From Felixounavirus LF82P5: a stretch of DNA of 64,000 bases. Shown in pieces: positions 3,116-25,051 of the stretch (position 1 is the first letter of the stretch; every line of letters begins with the position of its first letter). The translations under genes were made by a program, and so were the position numbers. Location of the stretch: the sequence record OZ035800.1. One strand, given 5' to 3'. The notes under the pieces are model-generated. The model was not told the DNA's origin. It ran no database searches and saw only the letters and a program-made list of their open reading frames with translations.

Positions 3116-3615
3116 TGGCTGAAGTTATCTCTATTTCAAATGCTACACGAGTGCATTCGTATAGAGGTGTTCTTATTATCACTGACAAATTATCTGTAGA
3201 GGCTGGCTCAAGGGTCAGCCTTTCAGGTTATGTAAGTGATGGTGGAACCTCTGACGTTTTCACTATTTGCAGGTTACTTGATGCACCAATGAGTGGAAAA
3301 CCGTTTATTTTAGGAAATTGTAGTGAAATTGTTAAAATTCCATTTGACAGTTCATGCCTTTTGGGTGTAAAGTTATATAACTGCGAGAATAAACGTATCA
3401 ATGTTAATAGCATTGAAGCCGCTTTCATTACCCTCGACACTGCATTTCAATCTCCAATGACAGTTAATAAAGAAACAAACAGACTTGAATACATTTTTTC
3501 ACAAAATGATTACAAAGTACTTGTCAAAGGCAAAGTATATGATATGATTGTAAATGTGGTAGATGAATCTGGTAACCATTCAACAGTCCTTAAACAAAAA
3601 GTAAGGTTTAATTAA
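3115..3615 (+). CDS. Hypothetical head-associated protein
   Basis: 166 aa ORF, start overlaps portal stop (ATGA-type coupling). Confidence 0.4.
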   Translation: MAEVISISNATRVHSYRGVLIITDKLSVEAGSRVSLSGYVSDGGTSDVFTICRLLDAPMSGKPFILGNCSEIVKIPFDSSCLLGVKLYNCENKRINVNSIEAAFITLDTAFQSPMTVNKETNRLEYIFSQNDYKVLVKGKVYDMIVNVVDESGNHSTVLKQKVRFN

Positions 3616-11285: not shown

Positions 11286-19304
<8,019 letters not shown>

Positions 19305-19306
19305 TA

Positions 19307-20494
19307 ATGGCAGTAGGTGAAATTCAAATTAGTGCCTTGCCTCAAGCAGCCTTACCAATTGACCTTAGTGATATCTTCCATCTTAAGCAGGGTATTGAGG
19401 ATAAGAGATGTACTCTTGAGCAATTACTTGCTCCACACTCAAGCCTAAGAAATAACCCACATGGTGTTACTAAAACACAAATTGGTTTAGATAATGTTAT
19501 TAATGCTCTTCAGTTAGTTGCTGCAAATAACTTATCAGATGTTACTAATGTAGCTCAGGCAAGAGCAAATCTACAGATTATGTCTTCAGAAGAGGTTAAT
19601 AATCTTGTCCAACAGCATATTCAGGACAAGAGCAACCCACACAATACAACTAAGGCACAGGTAGGATTGAGTAATGTTCAGAACTGGACAACATCTAACC
19701 TTTATAACGAAGATGCAGATAAGTATGCTACAGCAAGAGCAGTAAATAACTTGTACAAGGCTGTTCAGGCTTCTTATCCAGTAGGTACTATCCATCTTTC
19801 CATGAACTCTGCAAACCCTTCTACGTATTTAATTTGTGGAGGAACTTGGGAGTTAGTTTCAAAAGGTAGAGCATTGGTTGGTTATGACTCTGACACAAGA
19901 CCAGCAGGTTCTGTATTTGGTGCTTCAACTGTCACTTTGTCAGTTAATAACATGCCTCAACACTCTCACTCTGTGTCTCTTAGTGGTGGTGGTCATACTC
20001 ATAATGCAACGGTGTCAATTTCAGCTTTTGACTATGGGACTAAGACTACCAACTCTTTTGACTATGGAACTAAGACCACTAACACAACTGGTAACCACAA
20101 CCATGTTGGTAGTGGGTCAACAAGTTCTGCTGGTGCTCATAACCACAGATTGACCTATGAATCAGGTGGTGGTTTATCGGAAAGACCTGCAATGGTTTGG
20201 TCTTCAAGGAATGACCAATCATGGTACTCAGCAGATGCTGTCTGTGAAGTAGCTGGTGCACACACTCACTCTTTCAGTGTTACCACTAACACAACTGGTA
20301 ACCACAACCATACGGTTGGTATTGGTGCTCATAGCCACACAGTTGGTATTGGTTCGCATACACATAATGGTACTGTAACAGTTTCTTCTTCTGAACATAC
20401 GCATAGCGGGAACACTAATAGTGTTGGTGGAGGACAAGCTTTCAACATTGAGCAGCCATCCTTCGTACTGTATGTATGGCAGAGAACAGCTTAA
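19307..20494 (+). CDS. Tail fibre protein with His-x-His repeat tip
   Basis: C-terminal GNHNH, GAHNH, GAHTHS, GNHNHT, GAHSHT, GSHTHN, EHTHS repeats; internal tandem FDYGTKTTN duplication; shares C-terminal architecture with next gene. Confidence 0.7.
   Translation: MAVGEIQISALPQAALPIDLSDIFHLKQGIEDKRCTLEQLLAPHSSLRNNPHGVTKTQIGLDNVINALQLVAANNLSDVTNVAQARANLQIMSSEEVNNLVQQHIQDKSNPHNTTKAQVGLSNVQNWTTSNLYNEDADKYATARAVNNLYKAVQASYPVGTIHLSMNSANPSTYLICGGTWELVSKGRALVGYDSDTRPAGSVFGASTVTLSVNNMPQHSHSVSLSGGGHTHNATVSISAFDYGTKTTNSFDYGTKTTNTTGNHNHVGSGSTSSAGAHNHRLTYESGGGLSERPAMVWSSRNDQSWYSADAVCEVAGAHTHSFSVTTNTTGNHNHTVGIGAHSHTVGIGSHTHNGTVTVSSSEHTHSGNTNSVGGGQAFNIEQPSFVLYVWQRTA
20027..20086 (+). repeat. In-frame 30-nt tandem duplication inside tail fibre gene (FDYGTKTTNS / FDYGTKTTNT)
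   Basis: Two adjacent 30-nt units with 4 mismatches. Confidence 0.8.
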
Positions 20495-20503
20495 TTTCTT
20501 TAC

Positions 20504-20524
20504 AGGGGCTTGATAGCCCCTTTT
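20504..20524 (+). terminator. Rho-independent terminator between tail fibre genes
   Basis: Stem GGGGCT/AGCCCC, loop TGAT, TTTT. Confidence 0.65.
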
Positions 20525-20540
20525 AAGAGGAAAATTTATA

Positions 20541-22922
20541 ATGGCAGATTACAAGTTGAGTGAATTAAACTCAATCGATACAATCCGTTCAGATGACCTT
20601 CTTCATGTCAGAGTTAAAAAGAGACCTGAAATGCTTGGCGATGAAGACCGTCGAATGACCTATCAAGATTTCTTAGCATCTTTTAAACTTGAGAGATTTG
20701 TTCAGATTGCTGGTAGCACTATGACAGGTGACTTAGGGATTGTTAAGTTACTTTATGGTGGTAAGGTAGTATTTAACCCAACAGGCTCTTCTGAGATTAA
20801 TATTGGGGATGTTTTAAAGACTTTTAAAATCAACGCAAATGGCCTTAAACTGACTATTGCAGACACTTCAAGGTCGGCAACTGTTTATCATACTCTGAAT
20901 AAGCCAAGCCCTAATGAACTTGGGATGAGAACTAATGAAGAGAATGATGCAAGATACTCAAGATTAGCTGCAAATAACATCTTTACCTTCCAACAGGTTA
21001 TTCAAGCAAATGGCGAAGCTATTAGACTAAAAAACTCTTCTGAGAACTCCCCGTTGTATATTAGAGGTCAGGATAGCACTGGTGCTAATAGGTGGTATGT
21101 AGGTAATGGTTCAGGGAATGATGATGTTATTATCCACAACTACAAGACAGGTTGTGAAGTTAATCTGTCTAGTGTTGCTGCTATTAGCAAAACACTAAGA
21201 ATCACTGGTCAAGTTCAACCATCTGACTTCTCTAACTTAGATGCTAGATACTTTACTCAGACAGTAGCTAATCAGAGATTTGCACAGTTAGCTGCGAATA
21301 ACAATTTCACTGGCACTAACACGTTTAGCAGAAACCTACTTATTATCAGTGACAGTGCTGCTTTAAGGTTGAAAAATGCAACAACTAGCTCACTATTCAT
21401 TCAGGGTGTTGACTCTCAGAACACTAACAGGTGGTATGTAGGGAACGGGGATAACACAGCCTCTGTGCTGCTACACAACTATGTACACGGTTCAAATATC
21501 AGACTTGAGAATGGCTATATCTCAGTCAACCAGAACTTCAGAATCACTGGTCAAGTTCAACCTTCGGATTGGACTAATATTGACTCTAGATATATTCCGG
21601 CAGCAACTTTGAGTAACCTACCTAAGCTTAATGTTGCTAACACATTTGTGAATGTGCAAACTATTGTATCAAATAATGAAGGCGTAGTATTAAGAAACTT
21701 AACACAGGGGCAGCCACAATATATCCGTGGTGTTGATACCCAGAATGTATCTAGGTGGTGGGTAGGTGTGGGTGGCACAAATTCTACTGATGTGGCATTA
21801 AACAACAGCTACTCTGGGACTCAAATTACTCTTATGCCTTCAGCGATTAAGGCTAATAAGAACCTAACCATTACTGGTCAAGTTCAACCTTCTGATTGGT
21901 CTAACTTAGATGCTAGATATTTTGTTAAAACTCAGTTATTAAACCAATCCTTAATGACTGTTTCTGTAGATAACCTTGAAAACCCTTCAGGTTTTAATCT
22001 TGGATATTCAGGTTTTGTCAGAAACAATCAGGTTGCTAGTGGACTGAGAGAATTGGCAATTCATGTTGCTCACTCTAATAAGACTGCTGCACATGCAAGA
22101 GGAATCTCTTTTGTGTATGGCTCAAATGGACTGGCAACATTTACCTATGCCTATGACAAAAATGGTGACTATGCCGGAGAGGCACAGCTTTACACAACTG
22201 ATTTTAAACCAACCCCTTCAGATATCGGTGCATACACTAAAGCTGAAACTGACCAGAAGATTGCACAGGCAGTAAGTGACTCTACAGACCTTAATAAAAT
22301 CTACCCAGTTGGTATTGTAACGTGGTTTAACAGTAATGTTGACCCTAATACGGCACTTCCTGGTCTAACTTGGACGTACCTTAACAATGGTGTTGGTAGA
22401 ACTATCAGGATTGCAGCAGCAAACGGTTCAGATGTTGCTACAACAGGTGGTTCAGATTCTGTGACGCTAGCTGTTGGTAACTTACCATCACACACCCATA
22501 GTTTCTCTGCTACCACTTCATCTTTTGATTATGGTACGAAGAGCACTAATAGTACTGGTGGTCATACTCACTCTGTAAGTGGTACAACAAGTGCTGCTGG
22601 TAACCACGCCCACCACTTAGGTCTGCTATTGGTTAATGGTGGTGATGCTCAGTATGGTTACACAACTGTTAGCAATAACAAGACGAGAACTCTTGACTGG
22701 CTTGACAGAACTGATAACAAGTTCCCTAACACTAACACAACTGGTAACCATACACACACATGGTCTGGTACTACAAGTAACACTGGTGCTCACACCCACT
22801 CTGTAGGTATTGGTGCTCACACCCATACAGTTAGTGGTAACACTGGTGGTACAGGTTCTGGTTCAGCATTTAGTGTCACTAACCAGTTCTACAAGTTAAT
22901 GGCTTGGGTGAGAACTGCTTAA
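20541..22922 (+). CDS. Long tail fibre protein with three repeated domains and His-x-His tip
   Basis: 793 aa; three copies of ...RWYVGNG...ITGQVQPSDWSNLDARYF domain; C-terminal SHTHS, GGHTHS, GNHAHH, GNHTHT, GAHTHS repeats. Confidence 0.75.
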   Translation: MADYKLSELNSIDTIRSDDLLHVRVKKRPEMLGDEDRRMTYQDFLASFKLERFVQIAGSTMTGDLGIVKLLYGGKVVFNPTGSSEINIGDVLKTFKINANGLKLTIADTSRSATVYHTLNKPSPNELGMRTNEENDARYSRLAANNIFTFQQVIQANGEAIRLKNSSENSPLYIRGQDSTGANRWYVGNGSGNDDVIIHNYKTGCEVNLSSVAAISKTLRITGQVQPSDFSNLDARYFTQTVANQRFAQLAANNNFTGTNTFSRNLLIISDSAALRLKNATTSSLFIQGVDSQNTNRWYVGNGDNTASVLLHNYVHGSNIRLENGYISVNQNFRITGQVQPSDWTNIDSRYIPAATLSNLPKLNVANTFVNVQTIVSNNEGVVLRNLTQGQPQYIRGVDTQNVSRWWVGVGGTNSTDVALNNSYSGTQITLMPSAIKANKNLTITGQVQPSDWSNLDARYFVKTQLLNQSLMTVSVDNLENPSGFNLGYSGFVRNNQVASGLRELAIHVAHSNKTAAHARGISFVYGSNGLATFTYAYDKNGDYAGEAQLYTTDFKPTPSDIGAYTKAETDQKIAQAVSDSTDLNKIYPVGIVTWFNSNVDPNTALPGLTWTYLNNGVGRTIRIAAANGSDVATTGGSDSVTLAVGNLPSHTHSFSATTSSFDYGTKSTNSTGGHTHSVSGTTSAAGNHAHHLGLLLVNGGDAQYGYTTVSNNKTRTLDWLDRTDNKFPNTNTTGNHTHTWSGTTSNTGAHTHSVGIGAHTHTVSGNTGGTGSGSAFSVTNQFYKLMAWVRTA
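21201..21889 (+). repeat. Three copies of a roughly 110-codon domain repeat in long tail fibre gene
   Basis: ATCACTGGTCAAGTTCAACC at 21201 and 21543, ATTACTGGTCAAGTTCAACC at 21870; protein repeat ITGQVQPSD(F/W)(S/T)N(L/I)D(A/S)RY. Confidence 0.75.
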
Positions 22923-22929
22923 TCCCTTG

Positions 22930-22958
22930 TTGACTGATTATTAAGATGGTGTTAATAT
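22930..22958 (+). promoter_or_regulatory. Sigma70-like promoter TTGACT-17-TAATAT upstream of small membrane-protein genes
   Basis: -35 TTGACT 22930-22935, 17 nt spacer, -10 TAATAT 22953-22958. Confidence 0.5.
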
Positions 22959-22983
22959 TCTTTATGGGTATTCTCACCATCTT
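22943..22983 (+). promoter_or_regulatory. 9-bp perfect inverted repeat AAGATGGTG ... CACCATCTT in leader of small membrane-protein operon
   Basis: Arms at 22943-22951 and 22975-22983, 23 nt apart, overlapping the -10 and start site region. Confidence 0.4.
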
Positions 22984-23001
22984 GGCTGATGAGGTGATTA
23001 A

Positions 23002-23196
23002 ATGCCTACAATCCTAGCAATTCTTCTAAAAAATCTAGGTAGCTTCTTCTGGAAACTCATTTTATCCCTTCTAAGTGAATACATGATTGAGAAAGTGTTC
23101 TTTAAGCTTGCAAGATACCTTGCGAGTAAAACAGACACACCTATTGATGATGAGTTCGTAGATAACTTAGAAAAAGCTTTTAAGGGGGAGAAATAA
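23002..23196 (+). CDS. Small hydrophobic protein (possible lysis/membrane protein)
   Basis: 64 aa, hydrophobic N-terminal segment ILAILLKNLGSFFWKLILSLL; GAGGTG RBS; downstream of TTGACT-17-TAATAT promoter. Confidence 0.4.
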   Translation: MPTILAILLKNLGSFFWKLILSLLSEYMIEKVFFKLARYLASKTDTPIDDEFVDNLEKAFKGEK

Positions 23197-23568
23197 ATGA
23201 AGTGGCTAGAGGAAGCTTTTAAAAATAATATTGGTGCAATTGTAGTTGGTATTTTTAGTGTTATTGGGATGTATACCACTATGCAAGTTTCAAGTGGTAA
23301 GCAAGAAGTGTCTGTCACAACAAAGTTACAGCAGCTAGATAATTATTCCAAAAGTAACTATTCAGCTATTCGTGATTTACAGTCTGACATGAGACTGATT
23401 CAGCTAGGGATGGAGAACCAGAAAGTTCAGTTAGAGAATGTTAAGGGTGAAAACGCAAAACTTACCAAAACTCTTGATAAATTCTCTGACAGTGTGAATA
23501 ATCTGGCTCAATCAGTATCAGCCCTCCAAGCTATTACTGAAAAGAACACAAAGAATACTGAAAAATAA
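23197..23568 (+). CDS. Single-pass membrane protein with coiled-coil domain (holin/antiholin or spanin-like candidate)
   Basis: 123 aa; one TM helix NIGAIVVGIFSVIGMYTTM then Q/L/N-rich coiled coil; last gene before bidirectional terminator. Confidence 0.4.
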   Translation: MKWLEEAFKNNIGAIVVGIFSVIGMYTTMQVSSGKQEVSVTTKLQQLDNYSKSNYSAIRDLQSDMRLIQLGMENQKVQLENVKGENAKLTKTLDKFSDSVNNLAQSVSALQAITEKNTKNTEK

Positions 23569-23575
23569 AGTTTAA

Positions 23576-23601
23576 GGCTCCTTTTTACGGGAGCCTTTTT
23601 T
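23576..23601. terminator. Bidirectional terminator at convergent junction of structural and minus-strand blocks
   Basis: Stem GGCTCC/GGAGCC followed by TTTTTT; T-rich on opposite strand too. Confidence 0.65.
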
Positions 23602-23604
23602 GTT

Positions 23605-24504
23605 TTACTTACCTACTGACAGAGGTGCTTCAATCTTCCCTGCATGTTGGTAGTTGTTAATGCCACCAATAAAATCACTTGCAGTAAGATGTTTTAAGTC
23701 ACTTAAAGTGTTAAGTGGTACACCAATCTCAAAAGTAGGTGCATGGAACTCTTCGTTGTTCATCAGTTCATAAACCTGCTTCATATGATTCTGATAAATC
23801 TGAGTATCCCCAAAGACACCTATCAAGTATCGTGGAGTGTACCCAGTCATCTTACAAAGAACTTCCAGAATAAAACCATAAGACGCAATATTAAACGGAA
23901 GTCCTAAAAAGGTGTCTACAGAACGTTGATACCATTGTAAGTCAACTTCACCTTCGTTAGTGATATAAATCTGAAACAGAACATGACAAGGTGCTAAAGC
24001 CATCGAGTTGGCTGCAATATCTGCTGCATTCCAAGCATTAACAAGCATGTAACGGTCTGTGATATCACCTTTCATCTTCGTTACTAAGGTCTCTAACTGG
24101 TCTACAACACAACCATTATGACCTTCAAAGTTTCTCCACTGAACCCCGTAGATTCTCCCACCTGCATCCTCTAACCAGTCTTGCTCAGAAGAATAGTTAG
24201 AGCTTAACCAGCGTTTAAAGTCATCTGACCAGATAGTCCAGCGTTCTCCATCATTTTCACCCCAAGTGCGATAACGGAGTTCACCAAGTTTATTCTCACC
24301 ATTCAGGAACCATAAAGCTTCCCCAATAACTTGCCGTGTAAACACCTGTTTAGATGTTAAGAGTGGGAAACCAGTACGCATATCAAAACGAAACTGTGGT
24401 GGAGCAAATGCAGAGATAACATCTCCAGTTCGTGTAGTACGCAGTTCACCAACGGATAAAACATGGTTCAGGATATTTTTGTAACTTGAATCTGCTTGTG
24501 ACAT
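23605..24504 (-). CDS. thyA: Thymidylate synthase (ThyA family)
   Basis: RTGDVIS, ALWFLNG, YGVQWR, LAPCHVLFQIY (catalytic Cys), YQRSVDTFLGLPFNIASY, GDTQIYQNH; adjacent to DHFR. Confidence 0.85.
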   Translation of the reverse strand: MSQADSSYKNILNHVLSVGELRTTRTGDVISAFAPPQFRFDMRTGFPLLTSKQVFTRQVIGEALWFLNGENKLGELRYRTWGENDGERWTIWSDDFKRWLSSNYSSEQDWLEDAGGRIYGVQWRNFEGHNGCVVDQLETLVTKMKGDITDRYMLVNAWNAADIAANSMALAPCHVLFQIYITNEGEVDLQWYQRSVDTFLGLPFNIASYGFILEVLCKMTGYTPRYLIGVFGDTQIYQNHMKQVYELMNNEEFHAPTFEIGVPLNTLSDLKHLTASDFIGGINNYQHAGKIEAPLSVGK

Positions 24505-24505
24505 A

Positions 24506-25051
24506 TCAAAAGTGTCCTTTTACTTGTGGAACATAAATTTCAAAAGTTGCTTTACCATCCTCTGATGGTTTTGACTGTACCTTTGTAAATACACGGTTAT
24601 CATACAGCTTCTCAAAGAAGTTTTCAAAAGGTAAATGCACAGTAGCCTCTTCAGTAACTTTATGGAAGACTGTATGGAACACCACACCAGCATACGGTAA
24701 AGCATTGACAAGGACACCTGCACCACCAATTACAAAGACATCTTCATCAATAGAGCTATCAAGATACTTCAAAAATGCTCCAAAGGATTCTTTGCTGGCC
24801 TTAGCATACATTACACCATCTTTGCCAAAATCTATACCTAAGTATGGTACAGAATTTGTTAAGATTAGGTTTGCACGTTCTGGTAGAGGTTTACTACCCA
24901 GAGTCTTAAAAGTCTCATTACCCATGACTACTAAGTTATTTTTAGTGAGTCTCTTAAACTCTTGCATGTCCTGTTTATGTCGAGGCCACGGCATACCAGT
25001 CGGTGTACCAAATTCACCGTTTTCACCACTTGCAAATATTAGTTTAATCAT
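24506..25051 (-). CDS. folA: Dihydrofolate reductase
   Basis: 181 aa; N-terminal MIKLIFASGENGEFGTPTGMPW pattern typical of DHFR; 1 nt gap from thyA. Confidence 0.75.
   Translation of the reverse strand: MIKLIFASGENGEFGTPTGMPWPRHKQDMQEFKRLTKNNLVVMGNETFKTLGSKPLPERANLILTNSVPYLGIDFGKDGVMYAKASKESFGAFLKYLDSSIDEDVFVIGGAGVLVNALPYAGVVFHTVFHKVTEEATVHLPFENFFEKLYDNRVFTKVQSKPSEDGKATFEIYVPQVKGHF

Follow-up and report, generated by a model that had tools for sequence, protein, structure and literature searches.

Two consecutive plus-strand genes of Felixounavirus LF82P5, ORF1 (19307..20494, 395 aa) and ORF2 (20541..22922, 793 aa), very probably encode both side fibres of this Felix-O1-like coliphage, a myovirus, with T4 gp37-type tips and a diversity generated by recombination, a reading to which we give a probability of roughly 90%. 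Judged by homology, ORF1 is the short tail fibre (STF) of the genus and ORF2 the long one (LTF), with counterparts in gp26 and gp27 of Bas63, gp52 and gp53 of Sf14, and gp74 and gp75 of VpaE1, respectively. The window, i.e., the whole stretch of 64,000 nucleotides analysed here (OZ035800.1), has a fibre region 100% identical to GenBank OZ035761.1 (Felixounavirus LF82P5), with equal coordinates. The ORF1 protein is 100% identical to the ‘tail fiber protein’ of KhF3, PHROGs places both ORFs in tail-fibre families, and the Pfam families found across the two proteins are Gp10_C, gp37_trimer (three times), and a Phage_fiber repeat. Upstream lie homologues of wedge 2 (489 aa, 16673-18142) and wedge 1 (285 aa, 18145-19002), which agree in length and order with bas63_0023 and bas63_0024, followed by the gene of a 100-aa long-fibre platform protein (19002..19304, +) that matches phrog_4141 and shows 98% identity to Bas63 gp25, the LTF platform by cryo-EM (PMC12609058). 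In bas63_0023 to bas63_0027, wedge 2, wedge 1, platform, STF, and LTF follow one another in the same way and with the same lengths. For the two ORFs 3′ of ORF2 (23002-23196 and 23197-23568), the only PHROGs matches were families without an assigned function.

That Felix-O1-type phages have two fibres with T4-like HxH tips, and that tip and shaft vary, is already known from publications of 2015 and 2025. T4 gp37 C-terminal homology in both Felix-O1-type fibres was first reported for VpaE1 gp74/gp75, with conserved N-termini and variable middle and C-terminal parts (Viruses 2015; PMC4690856). VpaE1 is specific for the truncated LPS of E. coli B; its short fibre is 86.6% identical to ORF1, while its long-fibre tip is different and more T4-like. 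For Bas63 (Escherichia phage JohannRWettstein), a member of the same genus, cryo-EM of gp26 (STF) and gp27 (LTF) revealed a collar, an HxH needle, a head, and a chain doubling back in both fibres (Sci Adv 2025; PMC12609058). LF82P5 differs very little from Bas63 in the N-termini, collars, and proximal needles, and the Bas63 LTF likewise carries six HxH motifs plus an extra His. However, gp26 diverges from ORF1 at aa 261-332, with an unrelated head, seven HxH motifs, and three FDYGTK units, as opposed to nine motifs and two units in ORF1, so that the distal ORF1 needle lacks an experimental model; in ORF2, the cores of the shaft repeats R1, R2, and R3, the middle domain, and the head differ, the latter comprising 45 aa compared with 34 aa in Bas63. 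Shigella phage Sf14, of the genus Mooglevirus, carries two fibres of matching length on one virion, gp52 (391 aa) and gp53 (792 aa), and the virion table of that study records the detection of the two proteins (Commun Biol 2025; PMC11821841). They are described as single-protein fibres in which gp10_C-like, T7 gp17-like, and gp37-like domains occur, and the study found no counterpart of the Mu chaperones gp50/gp51 (PMC11821841). The Sf14 sequences would be more distant from those of LF82P5, as the short-fibre matches listed for Shigella and Citrobacter phages are about 60-70% identical to ORF1. The long fibre of T4 is assembled from four proteins, whereas those of LF82P5 are single proteins of 395 and 793 aa.

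Phage Mu expresses its fibre sets one at a time, and a similar arrangement, in which one LF82P5 fibre gene is silent, as a remnant or as a spare cassette, would fit the homology of the ORF1 and ORF2 tips (35% identity over 233 aa) and the hairpin with a short U run that separates the genes. This G+C-rich hairpin, followed by UUUU (20504..20521, +; MFE -16.5 kcal/mol, z-score -2.2), is conserved, with an identical stem in KhF3, LTH02, ev78, and Bas63; it does not satisfy the T-run rule of the terminator scan. Such an explanation is almost certainly wrong, since both ORFs are intact and lie on the same strand, each with a Shine-Dalgarno-like sequence 5′ of it, both genes are conserved in hundreds of Ounavirinae genomes, and an invertible segment is absent. 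Moreover, cryo-EM placed both fibres on one virion in Bas63 (PMC12609058) and Sf14 (PMC11821841), and gp74 and gp75, as putative fibres, are both listed among the virion structural proteins of VpaE1 (Figure 5 in PMC4690856). Neither gene is a remnant.

ORF1 begins with a baseplate-binding region that is 93-100% conserved across homologues, as is its equivalent in ORF2, and its aa 1-78 are identical in Bas63. A collar of the T4 gp10_C/gp37 type follows at about aa 146-215 (19742..19951, +), scoring 68.6 bits against PF21939 (Gp10_C; gathering threshold 27 bits) and matching 2XGF as well as T4 gp10 structures in phmmer. The ascending needle strand (aa 216-280; 19952..20146, +) has HxH motifs at aa 219, 230, 264, and 278 and leads to the head (aa 281-318; 20147..20260, +), a hypervariable module that aligns to the T4 gp37 head and is predicted to form the receptor-contacting tip at the hairpin turn. 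The descending strand (aa 319-368; 20261..20410, +) bears motifs at aa 319, 333, 342, 351, and 364, and the C-terminal segment (aa 369-395; 20411..20491, +; identity 0.77-0.9), which resembles the end of ORF2, probably returns to the collar, as its homology with T4 gp37 and the published chain topology (PMC12609058) suggest. An AF2 monomer model was of low quality (pLDDT 64.8, pTM 0.25) and gave no significant structural match; its most confident part was the ORF1 collar.

In ORF2, the conserved N-terminal region (aa 1-137; 20541..20951, +) includes the baseplate-binding domain and shows 93-100% identity in 118 homologues, with aa 1-75 identical to the N-terminus of Bas63 gp27. The collar (about aa 581-648; 22281..22484, +) is 96-100% conserved and can be aligned to that of ORF1, although its score against PF21939 (21.1 bits) is under the 27-bit cut-off. 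Beyond it are an ascending needle strand (aa 649-693; 22485..22619, +) with one FDYGTK unit and HxH at aa 651, 675, and 689 (HAHH), a head that is the predicted receptor-contacting tip (aa 694-735; 22620..22745, +), and a descending strand with HxH at aa 737, 751, and 760, together with the C-terminal return segment (22746..22919, +).

The nine HxH motifs of ORF1 (aa 219-366, seven fitting G-x-H-x-H) and the six of ORF2 (aa 651-762, five fitting) far exceed the shuffled expectation: means of 1.39 and 0.53 were obtained, at least nine motifs arose in 1 of 100,000 residue shuffles of ORF1, and at least six in none of 100,000 for ORF2. The C-terminal ends are also similar (ORF1 ...GQAFNIEQPSFVLYVWQRTA, ORF2 ...GSAFSVTNQFYKLMAWVRTA), which bears out an earlier sequence-only reading in which both fibres ended in His-repeat clusters and similar final segments. 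The link to the T4 long tail fibre needle made there holds as well, both C-termini being homologous to the gp37 tip 2XGF through collar, needle, and head: in phmmer searches of the PDB, ORF1 aa 146-367 matched chain residues 18-228 (E 2.3e-26) and ORF2 aa 646-772 matched residues 94-218 (E 6.7e-20). Ascending and descending HxH series, FDYGTK-type units, a VGIGAHxHTV motif, and the C-terminal strands are similar in T4; identity, however, is only 36-39%, T4 has seven motifs as against nine plus six, and the LF82P5 heads are unrelated to that of T4. The motifs flank the head as two sets (4 + 5 around aa 281-318 in ORF1, 3 + 3 around aa 694-735 in ORF2) that align motif by motif to T4. The same reading had taken the protein end for the tip, but this fold doubles back, so that the distal tip should be the head between the two sets, while the C-terminus lies again at the collar.

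From the homology with Bas63, each fibre would be a homotrimer, the conserved N-terminus of ORF1 attaching to a wedge protein on the baseplate and ORF2 to a small platform trimer made by the 19002-19304 gene. In each tip, the chain would run from the collar along the outward strand of a six-stranded needle to the distal head and back to the collar. In T4 gp37, iron is bound at seven sites, and those histidines that were tested proved essential (PMC6957217). As the density of the Bas63 fibres is too weak for side chains (PMC12609058), we infer the Felixounavirus metal sites from T4. By this analogy, every HxH layer, to which each chain of the trimer adds its motif, is predicted to bind a single metal ion on the threefold axis (Fe2+ in T4), giving nine predicted sites in ORF1 and six in ORF2, compared with seven in T4.

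The 30-nt tandem unit of the ORF1 needle (20027..20086, +; TRF: 20025-20083, 2.0 copies) encodes FDYGTKTTNS and FDYGTKTTNT, a conserved 10-residue needle repeat. Small gp37 duplications reportedly expanded the T4 host range in the work of Tetart et al. in 1996, and a recent duplication with a longer needle and an altered host range as its outcome, as in these gp37-tip mutants, would agree with the 2.0 copies and with units 9/10 identical to each other in the LF82P5 lineage. It is nevertheless highly improbable, as only 25 of the 30 bases match between the copies and three of the five changes are synonymous. In addition, at least two copies of FDYGTKTTN(S/T) are present by strict motif match in 33 of the 48 closest ORF1 homologues, while at least seven further homologues have FDYGTK-type copies that depart from the strict pattern only by single substitutions (e.g., FDYGNK). 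Altogether, at least 40 of 49 short-fibre sequences, from Escherichia, Salmonella, Shigella, and Citrobacter phages, contain two or more units, some of them three or four. ORF2 has a single copy, and T4 gp37 carries TDLGTKTTSS+FDYGTKGTNS at the equivalent place. With two copies across these phages and in T4 gp37, the duplication is older than the genus. The repeat initially described as a fresh duplication therefore exists where it was placed but is not fresh, and the duplication taken to be ongoing is instead ancient and conserved, both for this unit and for the repeats of ORF2. Diversity in these fibres very probably stems from recombination at conserved motifs rather than from recent duplication.

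Module swapping in the receptor-binding region, in turn, is well borne out. The ORF1 head has a mean identity of 0.31-0.43 to 48 homologues, compared with 0.8-0.99 elsewhere in the protein, and short-fibre heads fall into 25 unrelated classes with flanks 95-100% identical. Identity is 1.0 at aa 260, has fallen to 0.15 by aa 281, and is restored beyond aa 319, the heads being swapped between the distal His motifs. In some other Felixounavirus short fibres (P0016, P0017), the head is T4-like. For ORF2, most close relatives share one head class, in which aa 708-716 form a small variable patch, and other heads have been swapped in rarely.

That the ends of the head swaps adjoin distal HxH motifs recalls an idea reportedly advanced by Tetart et al. 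in 1998 for T-even fibres, in which such ‘His boxes’ serve as recombination points. The clusters might then be mainly sites for head exchange, with metal binding secondary or absent. We regard this as unlikely, since, in 59 diverse short fibres, H230, H232, H319, H351, and H353 do not vary and H219, H221, H278, H280, and H321 hardly do, a constraint at the protein level, and the tested T4 histidines coordinate iron and are essential (PMC6957217). A recombination-point role and a metal role of the motifs are compatible.

The receptor, lipopolysaccharide for the genus and presumably so for LF82P5, would be touched by the heads, i.e., by aa 281-318 of ORF1 and aa 694-735 of ORF2. As these two heads show no sequence relation to each other, the fibres probably bind different LPS features, which makes the two receptor specificities first suggested for this locus plausible. 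A proposal that the two fibres bind different receptors has also been made for Sf14 (PMC11821841).

A further source of diversity resides in the ORF2 shaft, where the three copies of a roughly 110-residue domain noted previously were recovered as R1 (aa 138-237; 20952..21251, +), R2 (aa 255-351; 21303..21593, +), and R3 (aa 362-460; 21624..21920, +). PF20744 (gp37_trimer) matched three stretches with 237.6 bits (gathering threshold 21.7 bits) and gave no match in ORF1, and an HMM built from the ORF2 repeats detected exactly three copies. R2 also matches T7 gp17 in the region of its pyramid domain (PDB 4A0T; E 6e-7). In contrast to PF20744 and T7 gp17, ORF2 has three such domains in tandem, whose cores are hypervariable and whose junctions are conserved. 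Mutual identity of the repeats is only about 35-40% at the protein level, and their DNA likeness is limited to a junction of 53-65 nt (79-87% identity), so the duplications must be old.

A comparison across related phages located sharp recombination blocks in the long fibre at the DNA level. KhF3 departs from LF82P5 at 129 of about 246 nt of the R1 core, the cassette at 20954-21199, whereas the rest is 98% identical, with no mismatch in the 150 nt before the core and one in the following 1,000 nt. LTH02 differs from LF82P5 in a divergent block at 21347-21526, within R2, whose variable core spans about aa 261-340. The R1 alleles form 10 clusters and the R2 alleles 11, combined in 28 different ways, and the R1 allele class of LF82P5 is found at R3 in LF110P1 (88.8% aa identity), CECAV_041 (76%), and P0174 (98.5%). 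The exchange of long-fibre repeat cores as cassettes, also between repeat positions, is real; mechanistically, all three cores would be swapped between conserved ITGQVQPSDxxNxDxRY junctions. Simple drift in mutation-tolerant beta-helix domains, which the Bas63 paper raises first among three options (PMC12609058), would suit the constant repeat number and length among homologues and would leave no part for cassette exchange or functional diversification. Yet the divergent R1 core between nearly identical flanks, the allele combinations, and the change of position are not producible by local drift, which is accordingly a very improbable account. More tentatively, the R1-R3 cores may form a second, cassette-based diversity system with a function of its own, such as lateral surface-glycan binding or escape from a shaft-sensing host defence, a suggestion that we consider rather doubtful. 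Such functions are listed as possibilities in the Bas63 paper, in which the LTF shaft variability was noticed (PMC12609058). A description of the cassette pattern and of the position-hopping of shaft cores was not found in the literature consulted on Felix-O1-type fibres.

In practical terms, anyone engineering the host range of LF82P5-type phages gains a precise map of the modules, with head coordinates in place of the C-terminus, the His-motif boundaries of natural swaps, and three shaft cassettes. A natural experiment is also at hand, in which host ranges could reveal the effect of a shaft core on infection: across the fibre locus, the R1 cassette is nearly all that separates LF82P5 from KhF3 and from LF82P3.

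Both tail fibre genes proposed for 19307-22922 by the sequence-only reading are intact and lie consecutively on the plus strand, each with a Shine-Dalgarno-like sequence upstream: ORF1, the short fibre (19307-20494, 395 aa), and ORF2, the long fibre (20541-22922, 793 aa). Pfam searches placed Gp10_C in ORF1 and three gp37_trimer domains plus a 14-residue Phage_fiber repeat in ORF2. The 3.6-kb fibre region is 100% identical, at equal coordinates, to that of OZ035761.1 (also Felixounavirus LF82P5), and shares 88-98% identity with that of many Felix-O1-like coliphages, KhF1-3, XTG1, VpaE1, and LF82P3 among them; KhF3 encodes a protein 100% identical to ORF1, annotated there as 'tail fiber protein'. 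Matches to the ORF1 protein were found in 310 phage records (tblastn, E ≤ 1e-10), nearly all Ounavirinae, with hosts including Escherichia, Salmonella, Shigella, Citrobacter, and Erwinia; in the few T4-like phages among them the match is confined to the tip. A literature search found no paper naming LF82_P5.

The closest structural reference is Bas63, a Felixounavirus whose genome (MZ501086) was located by tblastn and whose fibres have been described from cryo-EM as a 430-Å short fibre (gp26) and a 630-Å long fibre (gp27), both ending in a T4-gp37-like tip of collar, HxH needle, and small head, at which the chain turns back (PMC12609058). ORF1 aligns end to end with gp26 and ORF2 with gp27, with near-identity in the N-terminal regions, collars, and proximal needles. 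The genes upstream of the fibres parallel those for Bas63 wedge 2 (489 aa), wedge 1 (285 aa), and platform (100 aa) in length and order, the 100-aa long-fibre platform being 98% identical to its counterpart. Homology of both fibre C-termini to T4 gp37 has been on record since 2015 for VpaE1 (PMC4690856), and fibres of 391 and 792 aa, for which different receptors were proposed, have been described on one virion of Sf14 (PMC11821841).

Clusters of H-x-H repeats near the C-terminus of both fibres, as first read from the DNA, are far above chance. ORF1 carries nine motifs (aa 219, 230, 264, 278, 319, 333, 342, 351, and 364) and ORF2 six (aa 651, 675, 689, 737, 751, and 760), against means of 1.39 and 0.53 in residue shuffles, which attained the observed counts in 1/100,000 and 0/100,000 cases, respectively. 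The suggested resemblance to the T4 long-fibre needle is borne out by phmmer searches of all PDB sequences, where the T4 gp37 receptor-binding tip (2XGF) is the best match of ORF1 (E 2.3e-26, aa 146-367) and of ORF2 (E 6.7e-20, aa 646-772); the ORF1 collar also matches T4 gp10. The needle reading is correct, and the architecture is well known and published and the sequence already deposited.

Homology and motif layout were observed directly, and alignment of both tips with T4 gp37 divides the motifs into an ascending set (four in ORF1, three in ORF2) and a descending set (five and three), with the head segment between them at aa 281-318 of ORF1 and aa 694-735 of ORF2. After the descending set, a conserved C-terminal strand returns to the collar. 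The final segments of the two fibres are indeed similar, the last ~20 residues being alike; however, they do not form the tip, as had been supposed, since the head sits between the motif sets. Seven iron ions are bound along the needle of T4, and those of its histidines that were tested proved essential (PMC6957217). The nine motifs of ORF1, the commonest number in Felixounavirus short fibres, differ modestly from the seven in T4 and in Bas63 gp26 (the Bas63 long fibre has six; PMC12609058), and a needle two layers longer is therefore predicted. An AF2 monomer model of ORF1 (59-sequence alignment) reached a pLDDT of 64.8 and a pTM of 0.25 with the head below 50, and a Foldseek search of it against the PDB returned no significant match (best E 0.25, T4-type gp10); as a monomer model it is neutral with respect to the needle fold, which calls for prediction as a trimer.

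By analogy with Bas63, Sf14, and T4, from which we infer that the fibres trimerise and bind metal, as well as their attachment points and receptors, the two proteins would form homotrimeric fibres anchored by their conserved N-termini, the short one to the wedge and the long one to the platform trimer. Each would carry a needle stapled by metal ions and, at its far end, a head that binds LPS, the receptor class on record for the genus (PMC8594841, PMC11821841, PMC4690856). The two heads are unrelated in sequence, so that they likely bind two ligands. Drawing on T4, the Bas63 authors suggest an initial sampling of the surface by the long fibre, with the short fibre coming second (PMC12609058).

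Module swapping in the receptor-binding region, also anticipated from the sequence, is evident in the short-fibre head and, as sharp DNA blocks, in the long fibre. Against 48 homologues, ORF1 shows an identity of 0.8-0.99 over most of its length, with a drop to 0.31-0.43 within aa 281-320, and the 49 short-fibre sequences comprise 25 unrelated head classes. The homologue P0014, for example, is 97-100% identical to ORF1 in the N-terminus, collar, and proximal needle, with a head of only 15% identity. The head of P0016/P0017 is near that of T4 gp37 (YIEAWNGTGVGGN... versus YIEAWNGTGVGGNK... in T4), which indicates exchange of tip modules between long fibres of Tequatrovirus and short fibres of Felixounavirus. 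In these two metagenomic Felixounavirus proteins, the head (YIEAWNGTGVGGN...YRAGG) includes residues reported to be essential in T4 (PMC6957217). Short fibres of the Bas63 type (382 aa, seven HxH motifs) occur almost only in phages from rough laboratory strains (K-12 MG1655, DH5alpha, C), and those of the 395-aa LF82P5 type in phages from O-antigen-bearing O121, O145, and LF82 hosts; this fits a host-range role, although it is a correlation only.

Internal duplications had been reported in both genes, and both accounts hold only in part. The 30-nt tandem repeat of ORF1 is present (20027-20086, plus strand) but is not fresh: its two copies differ at five of 30 bases, three of the differences being synonymous, and two or more copies of the encoded FDYG(T/S)Kxxxx unit are present in no fewer than 40 of the 49 short fibres compared; strict motif matching gives 33 of the 48 closest homologues. 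Some short fibres have three or four units and ORF2 has one, and the repeat is found in T4 gp37 as TDLGTKTTSS+FDYGTKGTNS. Similarly, ORF2 does contain three shaft repeats of ~110 aa, termed R1, R2, and R3 (aa 138-237, 255-351, and 362-460; Pfam PF20744 ×3 and a repeat-built HMM), but a recent duplication is contradicted by their mutual identity of ~35-40% and by DNA likeness restricted to a 53-65 nt junction encoding ITGQVQPSD.... The repeat-built HMM detected exactly three copies in ORF2 and none beyond these, whereas five beta-helix domains were counted in the structure of the Bas63 long fibre.

Only the cassette behaviour of these shaft repeats may exceed the published accounts consulted. 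Across 118 close homologues of ORF2, conservation is 93-100% in the N-terminus, the collar, and the needle, and one head class dominates. The variable cores, by contrast, form 10 allele clusters in R1 (aa 141-220) and 11 in R2 (aa 261-340), which occur in 28 combinations with identity to LF82P5 down to 35%. Comparison with KhF3 shows how sharp the blocks are: 129 of ~246 nt differ within 20954-21199, the 150 nt ahead of this block are free of mismatches, and the 1,000 nt beyond it include one. LF82P3, too, has an R1 cassette unlike that of LF82P5. VpaE1_ev78 diverges across 20954-21199 and additionally in the head (22547-22786), and LTH02 in the R2 block (21347-21526). Alleles also change position: the R1 class of LF82P5 was found at R3 in the metagenomic protein P0174 (98.5% aa identity), in LF110P1 (88.8%), and in Salmonella phage CECAV_041 (76%). 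An alignment artefact behind this R1-to-R3 match was ruled out by BLAST on two complete phage genomes, which left the placement unchanged. Faced with unexpected variability of the beta-helix repeats, the Bas63 authors considered mutation tolerance, host recognition, and a defence target (PMC12609058). The recombination pattern observed here, with sharp blocks, free reassortment, and changes of position, argues for cassette exchange over simple mutation tolerance.

The GenBank records of KhF1-3 and XTG1 annotate a 10-nt 'cos site' within the long-fibre gene; its location (3171-3180 of the KhF3 sequence, approximately 22177-22186 of the window) lies inside ORF2, and the annotation looks doubtful. 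Between the two fibre genes lies a G+C-rich hairpin with a GGGGCU/AGCCCC core followed by UUUU (20504-20521; MFE -16.5 kcal/mol, z -2.2). KhF3, LTH02, VpaE1_ev78, and Bas63 share its stem unchanged, a single loop base being variable, and it may act as a weak terminator or serve to stabilise the mRNA. A promoter and terminator scan of 18900-23700, in which counts were not above shuffles, passed over this hairpin on account of the short T run. Just past the ORF2 stop, a promoter-like TTGACT-17 nt-TAATAT with an upstream TG (22930-22958) is a consensus match only, the regional number of such sites equalling the shuffle expectation. It precedes two small plus-strand ORFs with hydrophobic N-termini (23002-23196, 64 aa; 23197-23568, 123 aa), which match only function-unknown PHROG families (phrog_402, phrog_4038) and also follow the long-fibre gene, conserved, in Bas63, LTH02, and ev78; in Sf14, a gene near this position (gp55) bears the annotation 'holin or lysozyme'. 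A bidirectional terminator-like hairpin (23574-23597) separates these late genes from the converging minus-strand genes for thymidylate synthase (23605-24504) and a dihydrofolate reductase-like protein (24506-25051).
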